Shown here piece by piece: positions 38,149 through 62,386 of a stretch of 64,000 bases of DNA. This DNA comes from Myxococcales bacterium. Its GTDB lineage: Bacteria > Desulfobacterota > Binatia > UTPRO1 > JBBIJE01. The notes beneath the pieces are model-generated. The model worked only from the letters and a program-made list of their open reading frames with translations, searched no databases and was not told the origin of the DNA. Numbering within the stretch: position 1 is the stretch's first letter; each line of letters opens with the position of its first letter. The position numbers and the translations under genes are program-made. The DNA lies in NCBI GenBank assembly GCA_037446155.1, contig JBBIJE010000015.1, positions 11,318 to 75,317 on the forward strand, given 5' to 3'.

Positions 38149-39285
38149 TCAGTAAGCCCAGCGCCCAGCCGTAAAAACCGTGGAGAGAAAACCTAGGAGG
38201 GGAAGGAAGAAAATGACGAGAGCGAGGCGCAGGAGAGGCCGGCGCGAGAGCGCCCCCAGAAAAAAGAAGAGGGGGATGACCCCGAGCACGTAGCGGCCGA
38301 GGCTGATGTTCCAAGAGGTGCAAAGAAGCAGGCACAGGGTGGCCGCTCCTTGGAAGGTATAAGCCACCGGGAGGTAGAGAGCGCTCCAGAGGCAGGAGAG
38401 AAGAGCGAGGAGAAGGAAGAGAGCGCCGAGATCGAATATCACCGCCCGTTCATGCGAAGGGGAGGCCTCGAATGGGGAGAGCAGCACGTCCCTTAGGCCC
38501 TCCCAGGGCCAGCGAAAGCTGTGGTGCCAGTGCTCCCTCTGGACGGTCATGAAGTGGAAGGGGTCGCCGAAGAGGCTCAAGTTGATCGCCAGGTAGAGGA
38601 GAAACCCCGCGGGCAGGATCGAGGACCAGAGGAGCTTGCGGGAAAAAAAGGAGGATGCGGCTTGGCGCCAGTGGAGGAGAAGGAGCGTGGGGAGGAGAAT
38701 CAGCCCGTTTACCCTGGTCGCCCCAGCCAAACTTCCCAGCAGACAGGCGGCCCCGAACCGGCCCGCGTACACCATGTATATGCTTGCCAAGGTTATGGCG
38801 AGAAAGAAGCTCTCGGTATAGGGAGCAATCAAGAAGTAGGCCGTGGGGAACGCGTTGAGAAAAAAGACGCTTCCCCGGGCGGCGTCTTCGGTCATCTCCT
38901 GGCGGGCGAGGAGGTAGAGAAAATAAGAGGCGACGAGCGAGGAGAGGAAAGAAAGGAGAAGGGCGGAGACGAGGTAGTCGCCGACGAGGATGTTGAGAAT
39001 TCGGATCGTCCAGGGGTAGAGGGGGGGAAACACTATATTGAAGGCTTCCTCGCCCCTCGTTCGATACCCTCTCTGCGCAAGTTCGAGGTAGTGAGTCGCG
39101 TCCCACTGCCTCCACATGTTGAGGTAAAACGAGGAAGCTGGATCGGTCCTTCGAACCCACACTCTCTGCGAGAAGATGGCTGTCGCCTCGACCCCCATTC
39201 TTACGGCGACGACCAGCACGAAGACGAAGAGGAGGATGCGAGCGCGCTCGGGAGGGGAAGGAAAGCCTTTGAGCGATGGTTCCAT
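38149..39285 (-). CDS. GT-C fold mannosyltransferase (PIG-V-like)
   Basis: WDATHYLELAQRGY, FPPLYP, FPTAYFLIAPYTESFF, TRVNG, SLGRY. Confidence 0.85.
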   Translation of the reverse strand: MEPSLKGFPSPPERARILLFVFVLVVAVRMGVEATAIFSQRVWVRRTDPASSFYLNMWRQWDATHYLELAQRGYRTRGEEAFNIVFPPLYPWTIRILNILVGDYLVSALLLSFLSSLVASYFLYLLARQEMTEDAARGSVFFLNAFPTAYFLIAPYTESFFLAITLASIYMVYAGRFGAACLLGSLAGATRVNGLILLPTLLLLHWRQAASSFFSRKLLWSSILPAGFLLYLAINLSLFGDPFHFMTVQREHWHHSFRWPWEGLRDVLLSPFEASPSHERAVIFDLGALFLLLALLSCLWSALYLPVAYTFQGAATLCLLLCTSWNISLGRYVLGVIPLFFFLGALSRRPLLRLALVIFFLPLLGFLSTVFTAGRWAY

Positions 39286-45411: not shown

Positions 45412-47196
45412 CTACATGGCCGACATGCGCATGAGCATCGGCTGCTTCAGGAGCCAAAGGCTATAGAGGCTAAAGCCGACCATGCCGCAGAGCATCGGAA
45501 CTTGGCTCAGGCGGGCCCGCTTGGGGTCGGCGAACAACTTCCTTGCGCTTTCGCTTGCGGCCCAGAGTCCGTAAACGTGCCCCACGATTATCATCAGAAC
45601 CTGTAGATGCCAGAGGGAGCTCAGCGAAAGCAAGGGCGCAGGGAGGGTGTGTGCGGTTCCGAACAGGTTCCATCCCCAGCCGAAGGGGTCGGACGCGAGC
45701 TTTGTCACCTTCGGTCCCTCGACCAACAAATGCTCCAAGTTGTGCGCGAGGTGGTAAAAGAGCGCAATCGGGAGAAGCGGGTAGGCGAAACGCAGGAAGG
45801 CTTGCTCGTACCGAACGCTGGGATCGGCTGCGAGCCTGCGCCCGAGCTCGACGGTTGCCGCATAAAAGAGCAGGGGAAGGAGAAGGGCAGCCGCCATGCC
45901 GAGCGAAAAAGCTCCCAAACGGTTAGCCCCGAGCGCCGATGCCAGCCTCTCGGTCCACTCCTGCCAGGAAGGGGTCATGGTGAGGCCGTGGAAGGAGGCC
46001 AGGCTGAGCATCGCTATCGCAAGATAAGCCTCGTCGGCGCGCGGCCGCCTTATGCCTGCCAGGTCCGCCCCCCAGGGGCGAAGGTTCAGCCGCAGGTTGT
46101 CGGCCGGACAGGTTTTCAGGCACTCCGAGCAGAGCGTGCAGTAGGTGTTACTAGTGAGGCTACCCGGGAACTCGAACGTCGGGCAGCCGTATCCCCTCGC
46201 GTTTCCGTGCCAGCAGTCCTTGCCTCGGCACGTCTTGCACGTGTGCCGGTCGGCGGGTCTCAGCTCGATTCCGGCGAAGAGAGCGTAGAGCCCGCTTATA
46301 CGTCCTACCAAGCAACCATACCGGCAGAAGGACTTTCGCTCGAAAAGGGCTAGGGAGAGGAAGGTGAGAATCAAAATGAGGAGGCCCAAGTAGGCGGTAA
46401 GCCGGGGCCGCAAGCTCACACCAAAGCCGATCTCGATCCAGGTGAAGCCCAAAAAGAGGATCGTGGCAAGCCAAATGTTCCGAAGGGCCCTCGGCCACGG
46501 CAGTCCGAGCCCCAGGCCCTGCTCGCGCTTCCTCCAAAGCGCAAGTCTTTCGACCCAGGTGGAAAGCGCATCCCAAGGGCACACGTAACACCAGGCCTTG
46601 CCGAAATAGAGGATGAGAATCACGATTCCCGCCCACCAGACGGTCCAGGTGAGACAGGGTGCGATGTTGAGGGCTGGGTTTTGATTACCGAAGAGGCCGG
46701 CCGCGATTATCAGGACAAAGGCCGTGACCGTGGCTAGCTGGCCGCCGAATCTCGCCCTGCGCGACGTGGCAAGGGCGCGAAGGAACCGAAATCTCAGAAG
46801 GTTGAAGCGCGGCGGGGGATCGGAGCTCCGGGTAGTTGCGCGCGATCGGAGGTCGAAGAGAAGAAAGGAAAGGAGCAAAATCGCGGCGCAGGAGAGATAA
46901 TAGAGGCCAGAAGGTAAACCCTCCATCCGATGGGTTTCGGCGTCGCCCGAGTGAGGGCAGGGATGGGCGCTTTCGTGCGTGGCGGCACCCGGGGCGAAGG
47001 AAGGGTGGGCTGTCTCTTCGCTTACGGCCGCCTCGGCTTCCTGGTGGGAAGCGACGTTTTCGCCGCTCACGCCGGCCTGGGCCCCGCCCGAGACGAAAAC
47101 GCCAGCTGGGGGAGAGCCGCTTCGCTCGGCAGCGGCCAGAAGCAGGATCACGACCGGCAGGGCGTAGGGCCAGAAGATCGCAGCAAGCCGTTTCAT
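45412..47196 (-). CDS. 4Fe-4S binding membrane protein (NapH/FixG-like polyferredoxin)
   Basis: WCYVCPW, FCRYGCLVG, CKTCRGKDC, YCTLCSECLKTCP, YHLAHNL; His-containing N-terminal linker. Confidence 0.85.
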   Translation of the reverse strand: MKRLAAIFWPYALPVVILLLAAAERSGSPPAGVFVSGGAQAGVSGENVASHQEAEAAVSEETAHPSFAPGAATHESAHPCPHSGDAETHRMEGLPSGLYYLSCAAILLLSFLLFDLRSRATTRSSDPPPRFNLLRFRFLRALATSRRARFGGQLATVTAFVLIIAAGLFGNQNPALNIAPCLTWTVWWAGIVILILYFGKAWCYVCPWDALSTWVERLALWRKREQGLGLGLPWPRALRNIWLATILFLGFTWIEIGFGVSLRPRLTAYLGLLILILTFLSLALFERKSFCRYGCLVGRISGLYALFAGIELRPADRHTCKTCRGKDCWHGNARGYGCPTFEFPGSLTSNTYCTLCSECLKTCPADNLRLNLRPWGADLAGIRRPRADEAYLAIAMLSLASFHGLTMTPSWQEWTERLASALGANRLGAFSLGMAAALLLPLLFYAATVELGRRLAADPSVRYEQAFLRFAYPLLPIALFYHLAHNLEHLLVEGPKVTKLASDPFGWGWNLFGTAHTLPAPLLSLSSLWHLQVLMIIVGHVYGLWAASESARKLFADPKRARLSQVPMLCGMVGFSLYSLWLLKQPMLMRMSAM

Positions 47197-47723
47197 GCCT
47201 TCCCGGTGATTCGTTTTACGGCCACTATCGCGCCCACGAAGAGAGCGAGGCCGGCAGCGATGCTTCCCAATAACGCAAGCGGCCTTCCCCGGCTACCGAT
47301 TACGATGGGCAAGAGAACCCGCTCTTGCCGGGGTGGTGCCCCCCCAATGGTAAGCTCTGCCATGTAAGACCCCTCGACTGCAAAGCTGAGTCGAGCGCGG
47401 TAGAGGCCATCTCGGGGCGCAAGCGTCCGGCGCGGGGCCACTTCCCGATCACCCCGAAGCGCCGAGTGCGCGAGAAGCCTCAGGAAGAGGGGGCCTTCGT
47501 AAGGTCCTCCACTAGCAGCGTTGCGCACGTAGATCGTGAGATCCACGGGCTTTCCGGCTTGCGGTGTCGGAAGGGTCATGGCGATCTCGTAAGGGCCGCT
47601 TTTTGCGGCGTACTCCATGATCCTGTTTCCGCTCTGATCGACCCCGAGAGTTACGTCAACCGGCAAGTGGTCGGCGGCGCAAATCCGGGCAGAAAGCGAA
47701 AGCACGCCGCACGCAAGGAGCAA
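47193..47723 (-). CDS. Secreted YtkA/FixH-like Ig-fold protein with C-terminal TM anchor
   Basis: TTG at 47723 after AGAAGGGG; signal peptide; PQAGKPVDLTIYV...GLYRARLSFAVEGSY; C-terminal TM plus KR. ATGA overlap with the next gene. Confidence 0.6.
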   Translation of the reverse strand: MLLACGVLSLSARICAADHLPVDVTLGVDQSGNRIMEYAAKSGPYEIAMTLPTPQAGKPVDLTIYVRNAASGGPYEGPLFLRLLAHSALRGDREVAPRRTLAPRDGLYRARLSFAVEGSYMAELTIGGAPPRQERVLLPIVIGSRGRPLALLGSIAAGLALFVGAIVAVKRITGKA

Positions 47724-47763
47724 GCAGCCCCCCCTTCTAGCGCCGACGCCGGAGGTTAGGGCA

Positions 47764-48444
47764 CTAGGGAATACAGAAGGTCGTGTCGAAAACGCAGTTG
47801 GCACTGCAAAGAAGGGTTCCCCCGCCGGGAAAGCCGCGGCTTTCACACGTCTCGCCGTTCAAGTTAGTGCCGTCGCACAACTCCCCGCAAAAGGAGTCTA
47901 TCGTGCCGTTTCCGCAAAGCGGCGTGTTGACGCAGCCGCCGGCCCCCTCGTCGCACGAGTCGGTGGTACAGGCGTCGCCGTCGTCGCAGTCGAGTCCCCT
48001 AAAACCCGAGCACGCGGGAAGGCCCAAGTTGGCCGCCATGAGCTGTCTAACCCTATCGTTTTGGATGTTTATTAGGCAGTCGACGATGTCGTCTATGTCG
48101 GCGACACCGGGGCAATACGCGTTCGGAAAACCGAGTTGGGCCACCGTGACTCCGACGCATTTCTTCTTTATCCGCTGCCGGTTCTTTATCGCGGCAACGG
48201 CTATGGTGCGCATGGTTTCTTCCTCCTCCCAGCAGTCCTGAGGTGCGAGCAAGCCTTCCATGATCATCGACTCGCAGTTCGTAAGCGCTCGCAAGACCAC
48301 CTTGACGTACTTGCTCCCGGTCCGCGCGATCTGATACGCGCAGTCGCTGGAGATGGCCGCCGTGGCGGAAGCGGCCACCAACGCCACGGAACAGGAAAGA
48401 ATGCTAGCCAGCCGACGCGTTTTTTCCACGGTGCTCCTAAACAT
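47764..48444 (-). CDS. Secreted protein: helical Cys-rich domain plus Cys-rich repeats
   Basis: GGGAGG RBS; signal peptide; CAYQIARTGSKYVKVVLRALTNC; CDDGDACTTDSCD; CGNG...ELCDGTNLNGETCESRGF. Confidence 0.75.
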   Translation of the reverse strand: MFRSTVEKTRRLASILSCSVALVAASATAAISSDCAYQIARTGSKYVKVVLRALTNCESMIMEGLLAPQDCWEEEETMRTIAVAAIKNRQRIKKKCVGVTVAQLGFPNAYCPGVADIDDIVDCLINIQNDRVRQLMAANLGLPACSGFRGLDCDDGDACTTDSCDEGAGGCVNTPLCGNGTIDSFCGELCDGTNLNGETCESRGFPGGGTLLCSANCVFDTTFCIP

Positions 48445-48497
48445 GCAGAGACCCTCCCGACCCTTGGATTGCGCCCGCACTCGCTTTCTCCCCTTCC

Positions 48498-50183
48498 CTA
48501 CGGAAACAACTGGGGAACCCAAGCCTTGAACAGGTCTCGGACCACAGCCTCGTGGATACTCACTAGGCAGCTCGCCTCTCCGCTGGCGGTGGGCCGAGCC
48601 GGGTCGCACGGGTCGATGAATGGCATCACCTCCTCGGGGCAGAATTGCTCTACGGTGCCGATCATGGTATCTCGCGCCACCTCGGCCTTTCTTGCCGAGT
48701 TGGCATATTCCGTCCAGCAGTCAACCTGAGGTATCTTGCCCTTGACCATCTTCTTGGCGCAAAGACCTATGGCCCTCAGGTAGCTCTTGGTGGCGCGCAG
48801 CGAGCTCCTCAGGATCGTTTCCCGACAGTCCGCGACCAGGATCGAAGTGGAAGAGCCCAGAAAAACTCCCTGCTCGGTCAAAAGCGCCATTTGGCCTCGG
48901 CTATTGACCGCCGGTGCGTCCGGAGCAAACCCAGTGAACCTGCGGTTCGCCGGATCCGCAAGCCCTGCCTTGGCCGCAACCACCGTGAAGCTGGCGGGAC
49001 CGAAGGGCGGGGCGGAGCGAATGATTTCCCCGGGCGCCGCGCCGGGCAGCGGGTCCCCCGCCCGAAAATACACGTTGCCGAGACTATCCGATACCGGGTC
49101 ACTGAAAAGGTCGGTGGCATAGCTCCCGCCCGTTGTTTCGTCGGGGAAAAAGGTGGTAGCGTCGGCGATCATTTGGATGGTCCCGGGAAGAAAGGGGGGG
49201 CCCACGCGATAAATGCCCTGCCCCGATCCGGTAAGAGAATCGCAGTCGTCGGTAGGATCCGTAAGCGCCCTGAAGACCACGTCCCCGCCGTCGTTGATGG
49301 CCGGAGGCCCGCAGAATCGTGCTATGGTACCCCCCGTTTCTATCGGGTCACCTTTGGCTGCGGCGATCACGACGTCTCCGGTATCTGCGCTCGCTACGAA
49401 AATCGCGTCACAAAAGCCATCGGCGCCAAGGCACGCGGGATCGACATCGGTGCCCGCCACCTGACTCAAGAACGCGATGCTGTTTATCGAATTCATCGCC
49501 ACCACGCGCCGCATGGTTTCCCAGCCGCTCGAGCGCGCCTTGGCGAGATTCATGAAGAACCCGAGCACACGGCTCATCGTGGGTGCCCCGGTGGTCACCA
49601 CGGGGGTCGGCACCGCACCGAGTTCGTCGGGGAGAAAGACTACGGCTTCCAGCAATGCCCGCCAGTAAGAGACACCAGTGTGGCTGCTCGCGATCTGCCC
49701 GAACTTGCTGAAACAAGGCGAGCCGGCGAGCAAGATCTGATCCACGCTTCTATTGTTTTCGAGAATCCCTTGAATGGGCTCGCCGGGCCCCGAGCAGGAG
49801 CTGTGATATACCCCTGGCCCTCGGCTAAGCGGCAAATCATCCAGGGTCTGGAGCGTTCCTATCCCAGTGTTGTGTCCCTGGTTCGTAACGTAGGCGAGCT
49901 CGAAACCGGGCTGTTTGGTTTGAACCAGCACCTCGCATTGCGCCCCCACCGGACACTCGGGGTTGGTTGCGCCGGCCACTAGCGCCTTGAACGCTATGCG
50001 GCCGGAGTTGCTTATGCTCGGCTGGAAGAAGGCGGTGAATGTTCCTCCGACTTCTGCCGGTGCCGCATCTCCCGAAGACGCTACCTCGAAGAACGCAAAC
50101 TGCGCCCTGGCTTGACCGGGGAGCGATAGAACCAGCGCAGTCGCCACGCTCGCCGCTGATCTCGCTAGGTGCCTAAACCGCAT
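48498..50183 (-). CDS. Secreted beta-propeller with NxxGxxAF-type tandem repeats and C-terminal helical Cys-rich domain
   Basis: Signal peptide ending ARA; PSISNSGRIAF, PAINDGGDVVF, PVSDSLGNVYF, PAVNSRGQMAL. Confidence 0.75.
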   Translation of the reverse strand: MRFRHLARSAASVATALVLSLPGQARAQFAFFEVASSGDAAPAEVGGTFTAFFQPSISNSGRIAFKALVAGATNPECPVGAQCEVLVQTKQPGFELAYVTNQGHNTGIGTLQTLDDLPLSRGPGVYHSSCSGPGEPIQGILENNRSVDQILLAGSPCFSKFGQIASSHTGVSYWRALLEAVVFLPDELGAVPTPVVTTGAPTMSRVLGFFMNLAKARSSGWETMRRVVAMNSINSIAFLSQVAGTDVDPACLGADGFCDAIFVASADTGDVVIAAAKGDPIETGGTIARFCGPPAINDGGDVVFRALTDPTDDCDSLTGSGQGIYRVGPPFLPGTIQMIADATTFFPDETTGGSYATDLFSDPVSDSLGNVYFRAGDPLPGAAPGEIIRSAPPFGPASFTVVAAKAGLADPANRRFTGFAPDAPAVNSRGQMALLTEQGVFLGSSTSILVADCRETILRSSLRATKSYLRAIGLCAKKMVKGKIPQVDCWTEYANSARKAEVARDTMIGTVEQFCPEEVMPFIDPCDPARPTASGEASCLVSIHEAVVRDLFKAWVPQLFP

Positions 50184-50223
50184 GGATCCTCCACTGGGTG
50201 GTTCTACCTCTTTCCTCCTCGCT

Positions 50224-52323
50224 TCACGGCAGCGGGAAAGATCTGCCCACCGCGTCGAGAAGCTCCCCAATTCTCGGAGACTGCTTCTCGGCAAGCTGTT
50301 CAGCTCTCCTCTGGTGCTGGATGCGGATGCAGTCGGCCAGATCCGCGGCCGAAGATAGACTCGGGACGCCGAGCGAGTCGCACTGTGCCGCTTCAGCCAA
50401 GTATCCTAGACCCGTAGGATCTAGTATGTGGCTTGGGAGCAGAGGAGCAGCACCGCAGTTCTTGACGATGGTATTCCTGAGCTTGTCGGCGAGGCCCTGG
50501 CCCGGCGGAAGGGTGATCTTGCCGATCGCCTTGTCGCATTTGCTCTTCGCTTTGTTCACGCATGTCGGATCGGTCGGCTTTTTCTGGATGCAATCGCGGA
50601 CCGCACCCGCGCAGGTCTGAAGGCTCTTTAGGACCCCGAGCGCGAACTTCGCGCCCGCCTTCTTGATCGTCTGCTGGCACTTGACGGCGGCTTTGGCCAC
50701 ATCGGGATTTTGCAGGCCCGCTCCGCCGCCGTTGGCGCCGGCCTCCAGGCACGGGAACTGCTGGTTTGACGCGCCCGCACCGAAAAGGAGATCGAGCATT
50801 TCTGCCGCTCTAGGAGCCTCCTTGGCGAACATCTGCTCTAGCCTGCATTCGTGCTGCAAACCTAGGCACTCGGCCACATCGTCTATCGTGGCGGGGTTTA
50901 CGAATCCGAATAGAGCGCAGCGGTCCGCCTCTCTCGCCGCTCCATGCCCCAGCCCCTGGTTGCTAAGGAGATGGATAGGATCGAGTTGCGGCGGATCGCC
51001 CGGCTTCTTCGGGCCGCAGGCCTTGAGAATATTGATCCTTAGCTTTGCCTCGTCCCCCTTCCCTGGGTTGGTAAGAGAGTCGAGCTGCTTTTGGCACTTA
51101 GCCCGCGCCTTCAGGATGCACTCTGTATCGCCCGGCTTTCTCTGAACACAGGCAAAGGCGGCATCGACGCACTTCTCCAAGCGCTTTAGCTTGGCCGAAG
51201 CAAAGACCCCTCCCGCTTTGCTCATTGCCTTCTCGCACTTCACCGCCGCTTTGGCGGCGTCTCCCGAAAGTCCCGTTCTTCCGCCGTTCGCCCCGGGAGC
51301 GCAGTCGGAGTCTCGACTGTCGATCTGGCCGTCGCCGTCGTTGTCGATGATGTCGAAGCAGTCCTCGGTAACGGGCGTGGGCGAAGGTGAAGGCTGAGTA
51401 GTGGTCGTCGTGGTGCTGGTTGTCGTCGTAGTGGACGTGCTCGTGGACGTACTCGTGCTCGTGGTGGTAGTCGTAGTCGTTGTCGTGCTGGTTGTCGGAC
51501 TGGGGCTCGAAGTCGGTGTCGGAGGAAGCGTTGTCGTTGTACTGGTTGTGGTCGTAGTAGTCGTTGTCGTTGTAGTCGTTGTCGTCGGCGAAGGTGTCGG
51601 AGTAGGCGTCGGTAGCGGAGGCAAGGTTGTCGTCGTCGTGCTCGAAGTCGTCGTGGTGGTGGTCGAGGTCGTGGTGCTCCCGCCACTTACGCAGATATCG
51701 CCGGGGAGCTTGTCGTAGAGGATCGAACCCAAGTCATCCGGGGGGTTTCCGTCGCCGTCTTCGATCGAAATCGTGGAGCAGCCGGCAGTTTTGAGGACCC
51801 CAAAGCACGCCGTTAGCATCGTGGCATCGGCCCCGAGGTTGTCACCGAAAAGCGACGTTGAAGCGGAGCCCATTCGGCCGGGGGCTTTGAATGGGTTAGG
51901 CGTGAAGAGACTAAGGGTTTGACTTGACATGTTAACCGGCACGAGGTCGGCCGGGTCGAAGGTGAGATCGATATCGGTCGTGCTTACCGAGATGGCATTG
52001 CTCGTCTTCACGCTGACACAGCCCTGCGGTGTGCATTTTCCCGCCGCCACGCACTTCCCGATGGGATTTGGAGACTCCTTACACTGGCTGTCGGCGGTGC
52101 ATGCCGTTCCGACCTTCGGTCCTACAACGCACCAGCCCTGCGCGCACTCGGAGTCGCCGGAGCAGAGGACATTGGGATTATTGCTGCAACGGGGTTGATC
52201 GCCTGGGTCCACGGTCGTCCCGGCGACCGAGAGCGTGGTATCCGCTGCCACAGCCCAGGGAGCGGACCAGAGAAGCGTGAGCGCAGTCATGAACACCGTT
52301 GCCCGAGCGCGATTCGTTTTCAT
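50224..52323 (-). CDS. Secreted protein: cohesin-like domain, Thr-rich linker, Ca-binding motif and two helical Cys-rich domains
   Basis: Signal peptide; TLSVAGTTVDPG...IDLTFDPADL...PGRM...MLTACFGV...GDICV; poly-Thr linker; CFDIIDNDGDGQIDSRDSDC; internal ~170-aa duplication. Confidence 0.75.
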   Translation of the reverse strand: MKTNRARATVFMTALTLLWSAPWAVAADTTLSVAGTTVDPGDQPRCSNNPNVLCSGDSECAQGWCVVGPKVGTACTADSQCKESPNPIGKCVAAGKCTPQGCVSVKTSNAISVSTTDIDLTFDPADLVPVNMSSQTLSLFTPNPFKAPGRMGSASTSLFGDNLGADATMLTACFGVLKTAGCSTISIEDGDGNPPDDLGSILYDKLPGDICVSGGSTTTSTTTTTTSSTTTTTLPPLPTPTPTPSPTTTTTTTTTTTTTTSTTTTLPPTPTSSPSPTTSTTTTTTTTTSTSTSTSTSTTTTTSTTTTTTQPSPSPTPVTEDCFDIIDNDGDGQIDSRDSDCAPGANGGRTGLSGDAAKAAVKCEKAMSKAGGVFASAKLKRLEKCVDAAFACVQRKPGDTECILKARAKCQKQLDSLTNPGKGDEAKLRINILKACGPKKPGDPPQLDPIHLLSNQGLGHGAAREADRCALFGFVNPATIDDVAECLGLQHECRLEQMFAKEAPRAAEMLDLLFGAGASNQQFPCLEAGANGGGAGLQNPDVAKAAVKCQQTIKKAGAKFALGVLKSLQTCAGAVRDCIQKKPTDPTCVNKAKSKCDKAIGKITLPPGQGLADKLRNTIVKNCGAAPLLPSHILDPTGLGYLAEAAQCDSLGVPSLSSAADLADCIRIQHQRRAEQLAEKQSPRIGELLDAVGRSFPLP
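51375..51680 (-). repeat. Thr/Ser/Pro-rich linker (~100 aa, low complexity)
   Basis: Degenerate ACN codon runs encoding TTTSTTTTTT...PTPTPTPSP. Confidence 0.85.
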
Positions 52324-54521: not shown

Positions 54522-55589
54522 TCACTCGCTTCCGCCTCTCGTCTCCTGGGTGGCCAAGCCGCGCCCTAGTTCCATGGCCCACTCCCTCTCCCGCCAGCGC
54601 TTGCGGAACCTCCATAGCCCCGCCAGCATCCCCGCGCCCCAAGCGACATGTACGGTAGTGAAAACCAATGGCAAAATGCAGCCGACTCTAGCCCCGTTTC
54701 TGCGCACCGCCGTTGCCGCGACGGCGCTAGCGCCTGCCCCGTAACAGGCAGCGATCAGTGCCAATGGTGCTCTGCCCCAGCCACCCGCTGGCCACAGGCA
54801 AAGCGAGCCGACAAGCGCCAGGACAAAGAGCGGGGGTACCGCATGGCGCCAACTCATCGTCTGCGGGTGCTTCTGCAACACCCTGGCCTTGTAATAGCCG
54901 TACCGCCAATATTGTCGGGCCAGTGAGCACAGCGTCGTGCGGTTTCGATAGAGCGAGCGGATCCGGGGGCACATGACCACCCGCCCGCCCGCTCTGCGCA
55001 CGCGGTAGTTGAACTCGTCGTCTTGGTTGCAAACCAGCTCCTCGTCGAACCAGCCGACCGCTTCGAAAACCGAGCGGCGGAAAACCCCCATGTAAACGCT
55101 ATCGACTTCCCGCTCCCGATCCCCGTAATGAAAATAGGAATTGCCGATACCGAAGCGGCTCGAGGTCGCCACCGCGATCGCATCTCCCACGACCCCCCCA
55201 CCCGCGCACCGCATCGGGCCGCCGACGACTTGCGCCCCCGTGCGCTCCAGACACTCGACGGCGCGCCTCACGTAATCCGAAGCCACCTCCGTGTGCCCAT
55301 CCACTCTCACGATGATCTCTCCCCTGGCGGCACGAATGGCTCGATTGAGCGCTGCCGGGACTATCCGGGTCGGATTGTCGATGATTCTTACGCGGCCATC
55401 GCGTTCTGCGATCCGCTCCACTTTGGCTCGGGAGTCATCCGTCGATTGGCCGTCGGCGACTAACACTTCCATGGAACCTTCAGGATAATCCTGGCTCAGC
55501 ACCGAACGCAGGCACCTCTCGATGGTCGGGCCCTCGTTCCGCATAGGGATTACGATCGAGACGCGCGGCCAGGTACGGTTCTCATCCAC
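54522..55589 (-). CDS. Glycosyltransferase family 2 (ExoA-like)
   Basis: VSIVIPMRNE, DGQSTD, RVDGH, NQDDEFNYR, QYWRYG. Confidence 0.92.
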   Translation of the reverse strand: MDENRTWPRVSIVIPMRNEGPTIERCLRSVLSQDYPEGSMEVLVADGQSTDDSRAKVERIAERDGRVRIIDNPTRIVPAALNRAIRAARGEIIVRVDGHTEVASDYVRRAVECLERTGAQVVGGPMRCAGGGVVGDAIAVATSSRFGIGNSYFHYGDREREVDSVYMGVFRRSVFEAVGWFDEELVCNQDDEFNYRVRRAGGRVVMCPRIRSLYRNRTTLCSLARQYWRYGYYKARVLQKHPQTMSWRHAVPPLFVLALVGSLCLWPAGGWGRAPLALIAACYGAGASAVAATAVRRNGARVGCILPLVFTTVHVAWGAGMLAGLWRFRKRWREREWAMELGRGLATQETRGGSE

Positions 55590-56706
55590 GATCGCTTCCC
55601 TCCCCCTCGTTGTCAAGCACCCGCCGGTAGAGCCGGCTTGCGGCCCCGACCATCGCTTCTAGGCTGAATTTTTTTCGTGCCGTTTCTACTGCCTGCCTGC
55701 CGATCTCCTTCGCCTTGGACCGGTCCTTGAGCAGGGCCTCCGTTCGCATGACCAAGTCGGAGACGCTCCCTGGAGGCACGAGGTATCCCGTGAGTCCGTC
55801 TTCGATGATCTCGGCGCAGCCGCCTACTTCCGTAGCGACGACCGGCACACCGCTAGCCATTGCCTCGAGCACGGCGTTGGGAGTCCCCTCCCAGTCGGAG
55901 GTGAGCCAGAACACGTCCAACTGTCGCATGAACTCCGGGATGTCGGTCCGCGGGCCGAGAAATTCCACCTCGTCGCCGACCCCCAGGCTTGCGGCCCGGA
56001 ACTTGGCCGCCGCCAACTGGCTACCGCCTCCGGCAACCAGGAAGCGGCACTCGCCTATTCTGCGGCGCAGTTCCGCTGCCGCCTCCACGAAGAGAAACGG
56101 GTTTTTCTGAAGCTCGACCCGTCCCACGGTGCCAATTACTACGGGCCCGCCGTTCGCGCTTTGCCGCCCGTTGGTGAGCGGGAAAAAGCGGCGCGGGTCG
56201 ACGCCGTTATAGATGACGACGATGCGCTCCGTCGGGGCTCCGTAAACTTCGCCGATGTAGCGGGCGACGGCGCGCGAGTTACACACGATGGCGCGGCTTG
56301 CTCGGAACGCCGCTCGATTGAGAGCACCCAGAATCCCGGGGTCGCGCTTGCAGTTGCGGGCCGAGGTAATGAGAGGAATGCCGCCCACGAGCTTCGTCGC
56401 GAGCAGGCTGTAGCGATTACCGATGAAGAGGAAGGAGTGAACGAGCTCTGCTCCATCGGAGCGAAGGCTGCGCGCCAGCTTGAGCGCCCGCAGAAAATCG
56501 GCGCCGGTGGGGATCTGCGTGACCGCTATGCCCGCCTCCTTGAGCAACCTTCCGTAAGGCTCCATGCGCGCCGACAGGCAATACACGTGCGGCTCGAACG
56601 CCTCTTCGCGCGAAAGCCCTGTGGCCAGCTCGAAAAGCTGCCCCTCGCCCCCACCCAAGCCGAGCTGACCGATCACCAAAGCTATCTTCCTCTTGGCCGG
56701 CGTCAT
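55582..56706 (-). CDS. Glycosyltransferase family 4
   Basis: GGGEGQL, IYNGVD, GRVELQKN, EGTPNAVLEAMASGVPVV. ATGA overlap with the upstream gene. Confidence 0.92.
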   Translation of the reverse strand: MTPAKRKIALVIGQLGLGGGEGQLFELATGLSREEAFEPHVYCLSARMEPYGRLLKEAGIAVTQIPTGADFLRALKLARSLRSDGAELVHSFLFIGNRYSLLATKLVGGIPLITSARNCKRDPGILGALNRAAFRASRAIVCNSRAVARYIGEVYGAPTERIVVIYNGVDPRRFFPLTNGRQSANGGPVVIGTVGRVELQKNPFLFVEAAAELRRRIGECRFLVAGGGSQLAAAKFRAASLGVGDEVEFLGPRTDIPEFMRQLDVFWLTSDWEGTPNAVLEAMASGVPVVATEVGGCAEIIEDGLTGYLVPPGSVSDLVMRTEALLKDRSKAKEIGRQAVETARKKFSLEAMVGAASRLYRRVLDNEGEGSDRG

Positions 56707-58769
56707 TCCACGTACCCAAGCGCGCGCAGCGCCTGCATTCGCCCCGGATCGAGAAAAACTTCGCCCAGATCCGCCCCCAACTGTTCGCGCCTGCTCCATG
56801 TCTCGCGCATCCACTGCCCGAGATCGCGAGCGAGAGCCAGGCTGCCCGCTCCTTCTTCGGGTTGGGTTTCCCCGGGATCGCTTGCCAGGTCATAGAACTC
56901 CTGGCGCGGGAAGTTGAGCGACTGAATGAGCTTGCGATCTCCTTTTCTTACCGCGACCTGAAGATTGATGTTCTGCTTCACGTAGAGCTCGGATACGAGC
57001 GTCCGGGGCGGCAGGGGGCCTCGACCGGTCGCGGCGGGAATTAGGCTAATACCCTCGGTGCCCTTGGGTGGAGCTTGCCCGAGAGCGGCGAGGATGGTAG
57101 GGAGCGCGTCCACGATGCTTACCGGGTCCTCGACCCTCGAGCCTTCCGCGAGCCGGCCCGGCCAGTTCAGGATGAGGGGCACGCGAAGCACCTCCTCGTA
57201 AAGTGTCCGATGGTGGCCCTTTCCGCCGTGCTCGAAGAACTCGTCACCGTGGTCGGCGGTGAGAACGATGAACGTGCTCTCCAAGAAGCCGAGTTCCTGC
57301 ATGATATCCAAGACTCTTCCGATGTGGTCGTCGGTGAAGCGAATCTCCCCGTCATAGAGCGCGAGCAGGTGATCGAGATCGCGCCTGGGCATGCCCGGCC
57401 TTATCCTCGGGTCGGCATGAAAACGCCTGCCCGTGATCGAACCGTCGTAACTCGGGTCGAACATGCTGTCGTAAGGGGCCGGCGGGCTGTAATCGTAGTG
57501 AACGTCGAAGTAGTGGAGGAAGAGGAAAAAAGGCGGTTTGGCGGTCTGCCGCAGCCACTTTTCGATCGCGGGCGCCAAAAGGGGGGCGCTCAGAGTCGCT
57601 TGAGCCCGCATCCTCGACTCCCGATCGGGCGTGAAGGGAACACTGAAGTCATCGTAGAGGTCGAAGCCGCGGTCGAAACCGAAGCGGGAGCTCAACCAGG
57701 GAGCCGAGACGAATGCCGCCGTCTGGTATCCTATGCCTCGCATGACCTCCGCCAGCATGGGGACCGACGCGGGGATCCTGCGCGCCTCTCTCACTCCGTG
57801 GCCCAAAAGCGAGCGGCCGGAGAGAAGCGATACGTGGGCCGGTAGCGTCCACGAGGTCGTAGACCAAGCGTTGGTGAAAAGAACACCGCGTCGGGCCAGG
57901 GCGTCGATCCTGGGGGACGTGTCCCGCGGGTTGCCGTAACAGCCGAGTCGGTCGGCTCGAAGGCTGTCTATGGAAATGAGAAGCACGTTGGGCCGCGATA
58001 AATTGGGGTCGAGAGGTTGGGTATGCGCCTTGCTCGGGGGCTGGGAGGCGTGGCCCCTTGGGACCTCGGAAACAGCGGCGCTCACTCCCCAGGTCAGGGC
58101 ACAAACGAGAAAGAGCGCGGACGAGCGGCGCCGACTGTCGTCCTCGAGCCGAAGCCGAATCGAGGCGGCGAAACATAGCGTCGCGCAAAGCGCGAGCACA
58201 AAACAAGAAGCCAGGGTGCCGTCCCAGATGAAGTTCCTGACCGCTAGGGTTACCACCGAGCTGAACGAATAACGAACCGGCAATTGCACCGAGGCGATCC
58301 ATCCGATCAATTCCGTTGCGAAGCCGAATACCGCGAGCATGCCAAGGACTCTGCGCGCAGTGCACGGCCTGCCGGCTAACGCGACGAGCCAGCCGGCTAC
58401 GATTCCCACAAGGGCTCCTACGGGGAGGGTTACCAGCACGAGATCGCGCCCCAGAAAGAGCGAGTCGAAGAGGTCAGGTCCGTACGCCGAGGAAAGCGGC
58501 GCGGGCATCCAAGCTGGGCCCGCGGTGTTCCGCAAGGCCGCGTAGAGCTCGGTGAGAAAGTTGAACATCCTGGTTTCGGCGAGCGGCTGGGGCGCGATAA
58601 CGCTTCCCCACCACAGGACGGTAAGAAAAGCCATTTCCAGCAAAACCAGCAGCAGGGAGAAGGAGATGCCGGCGATCAGCCCCGCACAGGTAGCGTGCCA
58701 AAACCCACCAGACCTCGTTGCGTTACCTGGTGCCTTGCCGCTCACTGAGGGTTGTTTGCCTTCGGCCAC
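56703..58769 (-). CDS. Membrane-anchored sulfatase-like (alkaline phosphatase superfamily) protein
   Basis: About 5 N-terminal TM helices; PNVLLISIDSLRAD, WTLPAHVSLLSG, YDGEI, TADHG, C-terminal LRALGYVE. Confidence 0.88.
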   Translation of the reverse strand: MAEGKQPSVSGKAPGNATRSGGFWHATCAGLIAGISFSLLLVLLEMAFLTVLWWGSVIAPQPLAETRMFNFLTELYAALRNTAGPAWMPAPLSSAYGPDLFDSLFLGRDLVLVTLPVGALVGIVAGWLVALAGRPCTARRVLGMLAVFGFATELIGWIASVQLPVRYSFSSVVTLAVRNFIWDGTLASCFVLALCATLCFAASIRLRLEDDSRRRSSALFLVCALTWGVSAAVSEVPRGHASQPPSKAHTQPLDPNLSRPNVLLISIDSLRADRLGCYGNPRDTSPRIDALARRGVLFTNAWSTTSWTLPAHVSLLSGRSLLGHGVREARRIPASVPMLAEVMRGIGYQTAAFVSAPWLSSRFGFDRGFDLYDDFSVPFTPDRESRMRAQATLSAPLLAPAIEKWLRQTAKPPFFLFLHYFDVHYDYSPPAPYDSMFDPSYDGSITGRRFHADPRIRPGMPRRDLDHLLALYDGEIRFTDDHIGRVLDIMQELGFLESTFIVLTADHGDEFFEHGGKGHHRTLYEEVLRVPLILNWPGRLAEGSRVEDPVSIVDALPTILAALGQAPPKGTEGISLIPAATGRGPLPPRTLVSELYVKQNINLQVAVRKGDRKLIQSLNFPRQEFYDLASDPGETQPEEGAGSLALARDLGQWMRETWSRREQLGADLGEVFLDPGRMQALRALGYVE

Positions 58770-58771
58770 CT

Positions 58772-60160
58772 CTAGTCCTCGATGTACCCGAGCTCCGCGA
58801 GCTGGCGCTTGACCAGCGGATCGAAGTCGGGCTCGCGACTCAAAGCTCCTTCTGGCGATCTGCGCGCCGCGAGCCAGCCCCCCAACTTCTCGCGCAAGTC
58901 GGCCACGAGTTCCGGGTTTTCGGCTGCGATGTCGCGATTCTCGCCGGGGTCGTTTTGGAGGTCGAAGAGAAATTCCTGCCCGTCGCTTTGCCAGATGTAC
59001 TTGTGGGTGCGGGTCCGAAGAGCCCTTCGACGGACGTCGTGCACCCTGCAGTCGAAAAGCGGATACCGCTCCCTGAAGACGCGAAGGTTAGGGCGGAATT
59101 TCTCCGATACCGTGAAAGTACGATCCGGCGCGACCAAGCCGCCGCGGTCGGCTAGCGCCATCCCCTCGACCGGAGGCGGTTCGATCCGAAGCAGGCTGCC
59201 AAGCGTTGGCAGGATATCCACGGTCTGCGCCAGGGCGTCCGAGACGACACCCACCGGGACAAGCCCAGGGCAGCTCATAATGAGCGGCACCCTGAGGAGC
59301 GTGTCGTAGAGCACGAACTTGTGGCTCATGAGGCCATGGTCGCCCAAGTTTTCCCCATGATCGGCGGTGATCACGAAGAGGGTCCGTTTCAGTCGGCCGG
59401 CGGACTCGAGGATCCGCTCGATCTTGCCGACGAGAGAATCCGCGTACCTAATCTCGCCGTCGTAGAGCGCGGTCAGGATCTTGAAGTCTTCCGCACCCAT
59501 CTCCACGTAGCCGGCGATGTACTTGTTGCAATCCTGATTGACCGACTTTACGCGGCTTCGCGGCACGCCGTTCAGAAACAGCCGATCGTACGGTCTCGGA
59601 GGGTGGTACTTGAGGTGAGGCTCGTTAAGGTGCACGAAGGCGAAAAATGGCTTTTCTTGCGGAACCTCGCTTAGCCAGCGAGCAAAGGCCCGAACCGACC
59701 TTCGTCCGCCGGAATCCCTGCGGCCAAGCGCAGCGTCGATGAGCTTCTGGGAGAAGAAATACTGCCGGGTCAGCTTTTTAAACCGCGGCCGATGGTCGAA
59801 AAAGAATTCGAAGCCCCTCGCTAAGCCGGTCTCGACGATCCAAGGGTTGGCGCAAAACCCCGCTGTCGCGTAGCCCGCGTCGCGGAGCATCTCGGCCAAC
59901 GTGGGAATATGGGGCTCGAGTCTTCTGTGCTCATCTGTCGCTCCGTGGCTGGAGGGATAAAGACCGGTAAAAAGAGAAGCGTGCGAAGGCAGAGTCCAGG
60001 GCGCGGTGGTGATCATGTGGGAGAAGCGCACACCCTGCGCCGCCAGCCTGTCTATGTTCGGCGTTGTTGGAAAACGGTACCCGTAACAGGAAAAATGGTC
60101 CGCCCGCGCGCAGTCGAGAAGAATCAGGAGCACGTTCTCTCTGGGGTTTGGGTAAATCAT
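58772..60160 (-). CDS. Sulfatase-like (alkaline phosphatase superfamily) protein
   Basis: NVLLILLDCARADH, WTLPSHASLFTG, YDGEI, TADHGE, DPGE, C-terminal LAELGYIED. Confidence 0.88.
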   Translation of the reverse strand: MIYPNPRENVLLILLDCARADHFSCYGYRFPTTPNIDRLAAQGVRFSHMITTAPWTLPSHASLFTGLYPSSHGATDEHRRLEPHIPTLAEMLRDAGYATAGFCANPWIVETGLARGFEFFFDHRPRFKKLTRQYFFSQKLIDAALGRRDSGGRRSVRAFARWLSEVPQEKPFFAFVHLNEPHLKYHPPRPYDRLFLNGVPRSRVKSVNQDCNKYIAGYVEMGAEDFKILTALYDGEIRYADSLVGKIERILESAGRLKRTLFVITADHGENLGDHGLMSHKFVLYDTLLRVPLIMSCPGLVPVGVVSDALAQTVDILPTLGSLLRIEPPPVEGMALADRGGLVAPDRTFTVSEKFRPNLRVFRERYPLFDCRVHDVRRRALRTRTHKYIWQSDGQEFLFDLQNDPGENRDIAAENPELVADLREKLGGWLAARRSPEGALSREPDFDPLVKRQLAELGYIED

Positions 60161-60590: not shown

Positions 60591-61580
60591 CTAAGGATTG
60601 GGGATTGTGGCGTCGAGGAACTTGAAGTACTCCACGTCGTCGTCGGGGAACTCGAAAATGTCCCCGTCCGGGCCTCGGATAGTATCCGGGCCCGGCTTTA
60701 TCCCGGATATGTCCACTCCAGGGTCGGTGCTGTTGAACGCAAACGTTGCTGTGTCGCTGCCCGTTCCGCCGCGGATCTGATCGACTTCCACTTGGCCCTC
60801 GATTTCTTCTGCCCTGCCGAGCTCGATGACGTCGTCGTTTGGGCCAGAATCGACCGAGTCATTGCCCCTGTTCGGGGTAACGAGGTCGGTGCCGCTTCCC
60901 GCAAGAATGCTGTCGTCGTCGGCCCCCCCTCGCAAGATATCGTTGCCCGATCCTCCGTCCATAACGTCGCTGCCCGGCCCCCCGATGATTACGTCGTCTC
61001 CATTCCCCCCGTTTAGCGTGTCGTTTCCCTTCCCCCCGATTATCCCATCCTGCCCGTCACTGCCGTTTATGGTATCGTCGTCCTCCCGACCTTCGATGAT
61101 ATCCGACCCGCTTCCACCGGTGATCAGGTCGTTCCCCAGTCCCGCGGACACGACGTTCTCCCCCTCGCCGGCAGCAATTGTATCCGCGCCATGGCTTCCT
61201 AGGATCGCGTCATCGCCCAAACCCCCATCGATGTTGTCATTTCCCTTGCCGCCGCTGATACTGTCGTTTCCGTCGCCCCCCTCGATCAGGTTCGCGTCGC
61301 GCGAGCGATCGGCGCTGATGATATCGTTACCCGCTTCCCCTTTCAGTACGTTAAGGCCTTTGCTTCCCTCTATTATGTCCGGCCCGTCTCGTCCCTCGAG
61401 GGTGTCGTTACCTTTCCGACCCTCGAGGATGTCGCTTCCCGCCGTGCCGATAAACACATCATCGAAGTTCGTGCCGACGCAAATGGGAGGGCAAGTCGCG
61501 GGAACGATCGATTGTGCCCACGCCGTGCTGCCCGGCATGCAGAGCAGCCCAAATACGATCGGCAGTTTCGCCAGCCTCAC
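60591..61580 (-). CDS. Calcium-binding RTX-like (GGxGxD) repeat protein with signal peptide
   Basis: GTGA-coupled start at 61580 (the track ATG at 61595 is an alternative); signal peptide ending AWA; ~20 nonapeptide repeats. Confidence 0.85.
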   Translation of the reverse strand: MRLAKLPIVFGLLCMPGSTAWAQSIVPATCPPICVGTNFDDVFIGTAGSDILEGRKGNDTLEGRDGPDIIEGSKGLNVLKGEAGNDIISADRSRDANLIEGGDGNDSISGGKGNDNIDGGLGDDAILGSHGADTIAAGEGENVVSAGLGNDLITGGSGSDIIEGREDDDTINGSDGQDGIIGGKGNDTLNGGNGDDVIIGGPGSDVMDGGSGNDILRGGADDDSILAGSGTDLVTPNRGNDSVDSGPNDDVIELGRAEEIEGQVEVDQIRGGTGSDTATFAFNSTDPGVDISGIKPGPDTIRGPDGDIFEFPDDDVEYFKFLDATIPNP

Positions 61581-62386
61581 GGTGCGAAGGTACATATCTC
61601 TACCGTTCCGTCGAACTTGTATACGTCGTTTCCACCCGAGTCGGGGCCGATCACGTAGTCGGGGCAGTTGTTGACCACCCCCTGAGCGGGGTCGTCTTGA
61701 AAACCGAAGTCGGCCGTATCCGACCCCGCCCCACCGAAAACGAGATTGATTTCCGCGTCACCGTCGACATTCTCCGGATAGTCTCCAAGGACAATCGTAT
61801 CGTTTCCATCTTCCCCAAAAATTATGTCGCTTCCCACCCCGCCTCGCAGGACATCGTCGCCAGCCCCCCCCCTCACTACGTCGTCGCCAGGGCCGCTTCC
61901 GATGGTATCGGCGCCGTCGCCTCCCGAGACTATGTCCCAGCCGTCGCCCGACGAGATTGTGTCGGCGCCGTCGCCGCCGTCGATGATGTCCTGTCCCTTG
62001 TCCGATGTGACGACGTCGTCGCCGGAACCGCCGACGATTATGTCGCCAGTCCTACCGCTCCGGAGAATGTCCGCACCCGGTCCCCCATCGAGCAAGTTGC
62101 GGCCCCGGCCCCGTTCGACGAGCTCGTCGTCTCCATCCCCGCCGAACAGCAGGTCGTTCTTGCCATTGCCTTCCGCGTTATCGCGGCCATCGCCGGCGGA
62201 GATCAGGTCCCTGCCGCCGCCCCCGAAAATATCATCGCCCGCTGCCGAGCCGGTAATTTCGTCGTTGCCGCTCGTGCCGATGATCGTAGCTGCCTGGAGA
62301 ACGCCGACATAGGGGAAAGTCAGGACCGCGCTGATCGCTGCTCCTACAAGCAGAGCCCCCGTCCGCGTGAGGCGCAACCTTCTCAC
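61577..62386 (-). CDS. Calcium-binding RTX-like (GGxGxD) repeat protein with signal peptide
   Basis: Signal peptide ending LQA; tandem GGDGADTI-type repeats; C-terminus paralogous to that of the neighbouring RTX gene. Confidence 0.85.
   Translation of the reverse strand: MRRLRLTRTGALLVGAAISAVLTFPYVGVLQAATIIGTSGNDEITGSAAGDDIFGGGGRDLISAGDGRDNAEGNGKNDLLFGGDGDDELVERGRGRNLLDGGPGADILRSGRTGDIIVGGSGDDVVTSDKGQDIIDGGDGADTISSGDGWDIVSGGDGADTIGSGPGDDVVRGGAGDDVLRGGVGSDIIFGEDGNDTIVLGDYPENVDGDAEINLVFGGAGSDTADFGFQDDPAQGVVNNCPDYVIGPDSGGNDVYKFDGTVEICTFAP

Follow-up and report, generated by a model that had tools for sequence, protein, structure and literature searches.

An uncatalogued, cysteine-stapled helical domain that appears to work in pairs on secreted bacterial proteins

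Three adjacent genes on the minus strand of the window, by which we mean the whole 64,000-nucleotide stretch of DNA that was analysed, encode four copies of one uncatalogued domain family, confirmed here as helical and stapled by cysteines. Two copies together seem to make up the working unit. In the reading that we tentatively prefer, at a little less than even confidence, the pair would be a non-catalytic retention or assembly module, and two of the three genes, P0002 and P0003, would together rebuild the didomain that P0001 carries in one chain, through a putative binding of their single copies and with the ligand and the location likewise presumptive.

The locus and its genes

P0001 (50224..52323) is translated as a secreted protein of 699 aa with a tandem pair of the domain in its C-terminal part. 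Following the signal peptide are a Cys-rich N-terminal part, a Thr/Ser/Pro-rich linker that can be read from the translation (about aa 215-315; 51379..51681), an acidic double-disulfide repeat that is matched by NCBIfam acid_disulf_rpt at aa 318-342, and then the pair itself. Copy 1 (aa 356-509; 50797..51258), of a long subtype, was delimited by profile and alignments and copy 2 (aa 542-688; 50260..50700) by profile and AlphaFold2 models; each is preceded by GANGG, and the inter-copy linker (aa 510-541; 50701..50796) carries a conserved Cys-Leu and the GANGG-type Gly-rich motif in the alignment consensus. P0002 (48498..50183; 561 aa) is also secreted, and Pfam and NCBIfam identify its cargo as DUF7453 / NxxGxxAF 'choice-of-anchor' repeats, which lie ahead of a single copy of the short six-Cys subtype at the extreme C-terminus (aa 446-561; 48501..48848). 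In P0003 (47764..48444; 226 aa), a single short-subtype copy (aa 28-144; 48013..48363) directly follows the signal peptide and precedes a Cys-rich tail that Pfam shows to be Dicty_CTDC / DUF4215-like. Both single copies were placed by a leave-one-out profile. The signal peptides of all three proteins are evident on inspection of the translations, and called genes in a public protein collection have exactly the lengths of P0002 and P0003, in agreement with the gene starts of the original prediction.

The same row of minus-strand genes includes P0004 (52373..54481), a secreted, Gly-rich repeat protein of 702 aa with a myxo_disulf/DUF4215 repeat (Pfam, NCBIfam), in which profile searches found no copy of the domain. 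A dockerin-like tail considered for P0004 was set aside, as it lacks Pfam support and is shared by just a single further ORF in the genome. Upstream on the same strand are genes for a GT2 (54522..55616) and a GT4 (55582..56814) glycosyltransferase, both identified by Pfam. Two sulfatase genes also lie near the locus in the window, and exosortase-family ORFs are present in the genome, one of them inside the window.

Four copies of one domain family

The original prediction placed four copies of one pattern, two in P0001 and one each at the C-terminus of P0002 and the N-terminus of P0003, and all four proved to be true family members at these positions, with leave-one-out i-E values of 3e-10 to 3e-37. 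The pattern corresponds to profile columns C8, I12, K14, L24, K25, L27, C30, C47, I71, C75, C87, C102, H107 and L114. A public-only profile, from which the window proteins and their close orthologues had been left out, was run on the 38,731 six-frame ORFs of this genome and recovered copy 1 (i-E 3.3e-37) and copy 2 (i-E 2.9e-37) of P0001, the P0003 copy (4e-12) and the P0002 copy (i-E 3.7e-3; full-sequence E 2.3e-4). An own-genome profile built without the tested copy matched P0003 at 1.3e-19 and P0002 at 3e-10, and in these leave-out tests all four window copies align along the whole of the profile. Divergence is greatest for the P0002 copy, which shares 13-25% identity with the others, and the six core cysteines (profile positions 8, 30, 47, 75, 87 and 102) are present in 4/4 window copies. 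Judged by sequence, the similarity among the four copies is far beyond chance.

Absence from domain libraries and solved folds

The copies were compared both for a shared fold and for a match to a known domain, and both outcomes favoured the original prediction. That no characterised family accounts for the copies was borne out by Pfam-A, NCBIfam, PDB sequences and fold searches, none of which gave a real match to the domain. At E<=1, Pfam-A (2025 copy) and NCBIfam 20.0 leave the domain uncovered in P0001-P0003, and Pfam matches over the domain were found in none of the four window proteins, 0/13 paralogues (E<=0.1) and 0/56 public members (E<=1e-5). The PDB sequence-profile search returned only vinculin at an E of 5.1, no named cluster for the domain was found in the protein atlas, and Foldseek gave no matches at E<=1e-3 for either the single-copy or the pair models. 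When the P0001 pair was used as a single query, no relative was found among the genome contigs searched. Titles and abstract openings of the literature on extracellular or Cys-rich proteins of Binatia/Binatota contained no description of the domain.

The wide VIA fold search returned generic helical bundles only, its best rows (Z 8.1 and Z 8.7) not reaching the level up to which the tool counts helical bundles as noise. The top row for the pair model is the PhoU-like 2iiu_A (Z 8.7, rmsd 4.6, 193/208 aligned), which is within that noise, and five further PhoU rows (Z 5.6-6.7) fall below it. One could take this lead of PhoU-like chains, together with matches of neighbouring segments to MopE-type and acidic disulfide repeats, to mean that the domain is a metal-binding bundle, akin to PhoU-like six-helix bundles or to the Lys- and Cys-rich vanabins. 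We give this very little credence, as even the best score is beneath the noise level, the PhoU and vanabin Pfam models are both without a match, PhoU is cytoplasmic whereas these proteins bear signal peptides, and the cysteines co-vary pairwise in the manner of disulfides. The PhoU profile (PF01895) likewise has no sequence match in window proteins, paralogues or public members.

Cysteines, helices and charge

Copies of the domain measure about 115-150 residues and hold 6-10 cysteines each. AlphaFold2 models are all-helical, with extra short helices and long loops in each copy, and copy 2 of P0001 modelled alone reaches a pLDDT of 87.5 and a pTM of 0.82. Conservation across members reaches 98% or more in six cysteine columns, and the disulfide-like, pairwise co-variation of the cysteines suggests three core disulfides per copy and two extra in the long subtype, with a putative connectivity of C8-C75, C30-C47, C37-C53 and C87-C102. 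Nine cysteines fall in profile columns of P0001 copy 1; copy 2 lacks C109 as well as the tail Cys found in homologues, and C109 probably pairs with the Cys of the linker.

The N-terminal part of each copy, comprising its first three helices, is strongly basic and the C-terminal part acidic, with a median net charge of +9 over profile positions 1-75 versus -4 over positions 76-124. Conserved lysines occupy 12 profile positions, and no polar residue is invariant, the highest being K14 (75%), R121 (75%) and H107 (67%). One explanation of this charge pattern is that the basic pair targets a substrate in the manner of a carbohydrate-binding module (CBM), binding an external polyanion such as a sulfated or uronic polysaccharide, DNA, polyphosphate or a mineral surface, and not the cell's own envelope, and carrying enzymes and adhesins to that target. 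The lysine array and the net +9 of the first 75 positions would fit such a role, as would the hydrolases and lectin-like domains among the cargo, the sulfatase genes nearby, and the 33/174 short proteins in which hardly anything accompanies the pair, some of these being fragments from short contigs. Much of the cargo, however, is non-enzymatic (beta-helix, propeller repeats), and the charge pattern suits envelope binding equally well, so that we regard substrate targeting as unlikely. It could also be that the basic face pairs with the module's own acidic part and not with an external ligand.

The pair as apparent working unit

The original prediction described four copies of one domain. That picture stands with a refinement, since tandem pairs predominate and model as one body: the natural unit appears to be two copies and not one. 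The natural tandem pair of P0001 (353 residues) was predicted by AlphaFold2 as one rigid body, with a pLDDT of 95.8 and a pTM of 0.93. Among 174 members, two copies are found in 165, four in 3, three in 1 and one in 5, a count that rests on the best 150 of 3641 representatives and favours two-copy proteins because the ranking used total score. P0002 and P0003, together with three close orthologues of these two, make up the five one-copy proteins, and the median inter-copy linker in the 174 proteins is 31 aa.

This genome holds 12 intact two-copy ORFs and one further pair that a stop and a frameshift interrupt. In two places single copies sit in neighbouring genes, P0002 and P0003 being one such case. 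Four other genomes of the same class contain 48 tandem clusters and 38 apparent singles; a weaker second copy was detected in 27 of the 36 ORFs around these singles (18 with both copies at i-E<1e-2 and 9 in which the weaker copy is at 0.01-1), and one further adjacent single-copy gene pair was found in L120. Six single copies in these four genomes were left without a pair assignment, which counts against universal pairing. Pairing is not universal in this genome either: a lone, divergent copy that has a signal peptide of its own (contig C4, 46517-47725; i-E 0.13 with the own-genome profile and 3.3e-4 with the public profile) has no partner within about 4 kb. A degenerate fragment of the domain lies at 168964-169602 of contig C1.

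An apparent split of one pair across two genes

The single copies of P0002 and P0003 seem to be the two halves of a pair that is split across adjacent genes. That the split is an artefact of assembly, a frameshift error, is ruled out by an independent assembly, in which the same two gene lengths are found at 94% and 92% identity, and by a relative at about 40% identity, in which both genes again have a start and a signal peptide of their own. Orthologues of P0002 at 87, 47, 44 and 42% identity every one end in one copy. In the distant relative L143, the P0003 orthologue (41% identity) begins 12 nt past the stop of the P0002 orthologue, and the order GT4-GT2-P0002 orthologue-P0003 orthologue is that of the window. 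By these sequence comparisons, the split is genuine and of long standing.

A tree built from 29 own-genome copies gives no sign of matched halves, because it does not separate first copies from second copies as clades, and the P0002 and P0003 copies do not come out as sisters; support in this tree is weak, and copies from one protein often cluster together. Adjacency of P0002 and P0003 could be a relic of gene fission or local duplication that involves no lasting binding. Another explanation sees the domain as a passive scaffold, a stable and protease-resistant stalk or folding nucleus, with the P0002 and P0003 copies acting alone and their adjacency a relic of fission. The rigid, heavily disulfide-bonded module, the lack of any invariant polar residue, the tree and the lone divergent copy in the genome all accord with a scaffold. 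Single-copy gene adjacency, however, is kept at about 40% identity and was seen twice more, and the conserved charge asymmetry and lysine positions exceed what a spacer needs, all of which makes a purely passive role improbable in our estimation.

Distribution and cargo

A profile built from an alignment of 27 own-genome copies retrieved 3641 cluster representatives at E<=1e-3; of these, 1783 reach <=1e-10 and 168 reach <=1e-30. Among 151 genomes of the phylum, 4 carry the family, all from the same class, and six genomes of that class are without any copy. In the sampled genomes the family is confined to one class, probably Binatia, and genomes of a sister family carry 50 to 140 or more copies each. 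The taxa of the nearest protein-atlas clusters point to Binatia; MetH, at 53-59% identity to Bacillota, Chloroflexota and others, gave no useful placement. The suggestion that the domain is portable, being fused at either end to unrelated cargo, holds for the wider family: it is C-terminal in 88 of the 174 proteins, N-terminal in 48, at both ends in 33 and internal in 5. Cargo of paralogues and public members includes beta-helix, propeller repeats, PKD and lectin-like domains, reprolysin and esterases, and Thr/Pro/Ser linkers adjoin the pair in 34/90 and 20/47 homologues.

A large and varied set of secreted proteins within a single class is also what might be expected of an export or sorting tag, in which some lineage-specific machine for export or attachment at the outer membrane would recognise the folded pair, much as happens with T9SS C-terminal domains or PEP-CTERM tags; this recognition would be the reason why so many secreted proteins carry it. 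It is in keeping with a tag that the 'choice-of-anchor' repeats of P0002 end in the domain where such proteins usually bear an anchor signal, and that the genome, including the window, has exosortase-family ORFs. Nonetheless, we rate a tag as having a rather slim chance. The N-terminal (48/174, as in P0003) and internal (5/174) placements are unlike processed C-terminal tags, none of which, to our knowledge, is N-terminal or internal; the domain has neither a terminal transmembrane helix nor a basic tail, and no candidate machine was found. PEP-CTERM (PF07589) and T9SS (PF18962) tails gave no matches in the genome in a search that was silent in 14/14 control genomes as well.

Proposed role and its implications

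The retention and assembly module that we tentatively prefer would be an extracellular helical bundle of some 115-150 residues per copy, stapled by disulfides, with two copies packed into one rigid body, usually in one chain as in P0001. Borne on flexible linkers at either end of many secreted proteins, this portable and non-catalytic pair would localise or assemble its cargo outside the cell, most likely by way of a lysine-rich face that binds an anionic polymer of the envelope or matrix; that the proteins lie past the cytoplasmic membrane we infer. P0002, with its C-terminal copy, and P0003, with its N-terminal copy, would each contribute half a pair to a complex of two chains, whose genes lie downstream of the two conserved glycosyltransferase genes.

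A bolder version, possible though distinctly doubtful, is that the domain is a self-complementing half-domain connector. Two copies would have to meet for one stable body to form, so that the lone copies (P0002/P0003, L012/L013 and the L120 ORFs) would be handles for heterodimerisation after export and would yield two-chain surface complexes. The doubled form would then be a class-wide address tag that keeps much of the Binatia secretome on an anionic glycan of the surface, to whose synthesis the linked glycosyltransferases would contribute.

One curated profile would label part of thousands of hypothetical proteins and flag much of the secretome of this lineage. Binatia are abundant, uncultured bacteria of soil and subsurface, and if the pairing is true it offers a concrete handle on how they keep enzymes and adhesins at the surface; if the pair rule and the split pairs are both true, the domain is also a compact, disulfide-stable natural connector between proteins. 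If the pairing is false, the result is a new and clearly bounded domain family all the same, one that has a confident model and lacks structural relatives in the set of solved structures searched.

Comparison with known systems

A possible likeness to the PhoU-like proteins (2iiu, 1sum, 1t72, 2i0m, 1xwm and 3l39) lies in the packing of two tandem helical repeats into one bundle, with a fold score that is within noise. The domain has no sequence match to PhoU, its copies add short helices and long loops, and the proteins that carry it have signal peptides and 6-10 cysteines per copy, whereas PhoU is cytoplasmic and has no disulfides.

By analogy, a parallel in use may be the SLH domain (PF00395), which also consists of small helical repeats present in multiples, at either end of unrelated secreted proteins, and serves in non-catalytic retention. 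No SLH matches were found in the whole genome in a search that was positive in 4 control genomes. SLH repeats come in threes and are free of disulfides, whereas the present domain is usually in pairs with disulfides, and the ligand of SLH is a pyruvylated cell-wall polymer. For the present domain, the charge pattern and the placement on its cargo are suggestive of a comparable hold on a polymer.

Like PEP-CTERM, MYXO-CTERM and the T9SS C-terminal domain, the present domain is restricted to a lineage and appended to much of the secretome, and the P0002 arrangement, in which NxxGxxAF repeats are followed by the domain at the end, resembles that of 'choice-of-anchor' proteins. Unlike these sorting tags, the domain is folded, 115-150 residues long, usually doubled, also found N-terminally or internally, and without a transmembrane tail.

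Finally, should the single copies bring P0002 and P0003 together, the domain would be comparable to cohesin-dockerin as a connector between separately secreted chains. That system joins unlike halves, for cohesin is a beta-sandwich and dockerin is a pair of helices that binds calcium, whereas in the present case the same helical domain would supply both.

The domain family and its distribution

Three neighbouring genes on the minus strand, P0001, P0002 and P0003, yield clean translations and encode secreted proteins carrying between them four copies of a helical, disulfide-stapled domain, placed exactly where the original prediction had put its shared motif. P0001 (50224-52323, 699 aa) has copies at aa 356-509 and 542-688, each preceded by a GANGG segment, P0002 (48498-50183, 561 aa) ends in a single copy at aa 446-561, and P0003 (47764-48444, 226 aa) carries one at aa 28-144, directly behind its signal peptide. 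In the initial alignment of these four, six cysteines are invariant, the two P0001 copies are 44% identical, and identity between the P0001 copies and those of P0002 and P0003 is 18-22%. Membership in one family is settled by independent profile statistics: a profile built solely from public proteins and run against the 38,731 ORFs of the source genome (G000) gave i-E values of 3e-37 for the P0001 copies, 4e-12 for P0003 and 3.7e-3 for P0002, and own-genome profiles omitting the tested copy gave 1.3e-19 for P0003 and 3e-10 for P0002.

Iterated six-frame searches of G000 found 27 copies in 16 ORFs, to which a search with the HMMER filters off added one two-copy ORF of 2945 aa. A profile of the 27 copies (A2) matched 3641 of 1.84 billion cluster representatives at E<=1e-3, 1783 at <=1e-10 and 168 at <=1e-30. 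The domain is present in 25 of 31 related genomes, the other six, of the same class, having no match; each of the 19 genomes from a sister family carries it, with 50 to at least 140 matches, and an even sample of the phylum had it in 4 of 151 genomes, all four of the same class. Within the genomes sampled, the family is restricted to one class (probably Binatia). Relatives of one member are labelled Candidatus Binatia, UBP10 or 'Deltaproteobacteria bacterium', and the nearest protein-atlas clusters are unnamed, with taxa mostly Binatota or Myxococcota. Neither Pfam-A nor NCBIfam has a family covering the domain, whether in the window proteins, 13 paralogues or 56 public members, a PDB sequence-profile search returned vinculin alone (E 5.1), and literature searched by listings held nothing on it. 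The family is real, well-delimited and uncatalogued, and the earlier remark that it could not be assigned to a characterised family stands for these libraries as for fold searches.

Conserved features of the copies

Among 350 aligned copies, at least 98% keep the cysteine at each of profile positions 8, 30, 47, 75, 87 and 102, and those at 37, 53 and 109 co-occur in 71-75% (phi 0.88-0.93). Cysteines 87 and 102 are jointly lost in five copies (phi 0.91), and L013, a single-copy gene elsewhere in G000, lacks both 30 and 47. The disulfides would be 8-75, 30-47, 37-53 and 87-102, with 109 joined to a linker or tail cysteine; P0001 copy 2 has neither Cys 109 nor this partner. A rival reading of the same domain is a metal-binding bundle. 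The copies carry a median net charge of +9 in positions 1-75 and of -4 in positions 76-124, lysines occupy 12 positions, each in about 50-75% of copies, and no polar residue is invariant among the 350. We favour a pair of copies that acts as a non-catalytic module for localisation or assembly, and its basic face may bind a negatively charged polymer in the envelope or matrix; alternatively, the module could bind an external substrate, or be a passive scaffold.

Cargo and secretion

Family cargo is of the kind typical of surface and secreted proteins, and includes beta-helix and propeller repeats (DUF5122, SBBP, NHL, FG-GAP) as well as PKD, galactose-binding-like and laminin-G-like domains, MopE motifs, reprolysin, alpha/beta hydrolase and PHB esterase. 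A hydrophobic N-terminal stretch was found, by a crude test, in 112 of 137 Met-starting members, and the secreted context of the family is clear. An export tag is another possible role for the module; the N-terminal and internal positions of the domain argue against a processed sorting signal. Of 90 proteins with cargo upstream of the pair, 34 have a Thr/Pro/Ser-rich linker beside it, as do 20 of the 47 whose cargo lies downstream. In P0001 the Thr/Ser/Pro linker spans about 100 residues (51379-51681), and may be O-glycosylated, because the window also encodes a PMT_2-like membrane glycosyltransferase (38149-39285), at a distance of about 12 kb, and a GT2 and a GT4 enzyme immediately upstream.

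Pairing and the split pair

Pairs predominate in the family, with exceptions. Among 174 stored members, a set ranked by total score and so biased toward two-copy proteins, 165 have two copies, three have four, one has three and five have one, the last being P0002, P0003 and close orthologues. In G000, 12 ORFs hold an intact tandem pair, and in one further tandem-pair gene (contig C11, 4855-6151) a stop codon and a frameshift interrupt the first copy; this gene is either misassembled or a pseudogene. Another four copies occur singly, in two sets of neighbouring genes, P0002/P0003 and L012/L013, with a separate signal peptide on each gene. The one clear exception to pairing in G000 is a divergent lone copy behind its own signal peptide (contig C4, 46517-47725), with no partner copy found within about 4 kb; a degenerate fragment (contig C1, 168964-169602) falls outside the rule. 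Four other same-class genomes gave 134 matches, grouped into 48 tandem clusters plus 38 that looked single. When the 32 loci around these singles were re-searched at relaxed thresholds, 18 of 36 ORFs had two copies (both i-E<1e-2), nine had a weaker second copy (i-E 0.01-1), and nine had one copy, comprising one edge-cut piece of a counted pair, two adjacent genes and six others. The two adjacent ORFs (genome G022, contig C31, 1396-2685 and 2610-4367) each place their single copy N-terminally, ahead of the cargo, which makes a second arrangement of single-copy neighbours.

The division between P0002 and P0003 is genuine and old. Proteins of identical lengths (94% and 92% identity) are encoded in an independent metagenome assembly, and the P0002 orthologues at 87, 47, 44 and 42% identity each end in a single copy. 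At the locus of one of these orthologues (L143), the next gene begins 12 nt past the stop of the P0002 orthologue; its product has a signal peptide, a single copy and a Cys-rich tail and is 41% identical to P0003. Glycosyltransferase genes of types GT4 and GT2 directly precede the two, as in the window, and neither P0001 nor its secreted Gly-rich neighbour P0004 was found between them and the orthologues. Since the copy in P0002 ends its protein and that in P0003 starts the mature protein, the arrangement matches what would remain of a cargo-copy-copy-tail protein severed in the linker between its copies, and the two genes may have arisen in this way. Single copies might instead act alone, but the adjacency of single-copy genes is conserved, which argues against this. 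We infer that P0002 and P0003 would together restore a pair across two chains; of the new ideas raised here, this heterodimer lends itself best to testing.

Other features of the window

The tail of P0004 (52373-52690, about 105 C-terminal aa) has two similar Asp/Asn-rich segments, dockerin-like by eye, with the pattern D-x-D-x-(N/S)-G ... P-N-D-A-L; it matches no Pfam model and is shared with just one other G000 ORF (contig C3, 83908-86025). The C-terminal part of an exosortase-family profile scores above cut-off at 11837-12304 and, elsewhere in G000, at C2 305109-305555 and C29 10993-11439, in three short ORFs (209-217 aa), two with identical scores. The stretch 45412-47846 holds a membrane protein of 594 aa bearing a Fer4_5 4Fe-4S motif and, upstream, an ORF of 217 aa (47193-47846) that in its longest reading shares 83 nt with the end of P0003; the true start of this ORF probably lies further in. 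Upstream of P0001-P0003, the same strand carries two genes for sulfatases (56703-58769; 58772-60160) and one for an RTX calcium-binding repeat protein (60591-61595), and the whole stretch seems given over to surface and secreted functions.

Predicted structure and comparison with known folds

AlphaFold2 models one copy, with the A2 alignment, as all-helical with a first helix of 39 residues (pLDDT 87.5, pTM 0.82). The natural P0001 tandem pair (353 residues, 38-row alignment) reached pLDDT 95.8 and pTM 0.93, so that the mutual placement of the two copies is confident, and they are modelled as one rigid body. Foldseek returned no match at E<=1e-3 for either model, and the predicted fold is without a relative among the solved structures searched. 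In a VIA wide search, the single copy drew de novo bundles (Z<=8.1) and the pair drew PhoU-like chains (2iiu_A, Z 8.7, rmsd 4.6, 193 aligned), both under the noise level that the tool gives for helical proteins. Because the best score lies under that level, the likeness of the modelled pair to PhoU would be one of architecture only, in that both build one bundle from two helical repeats.
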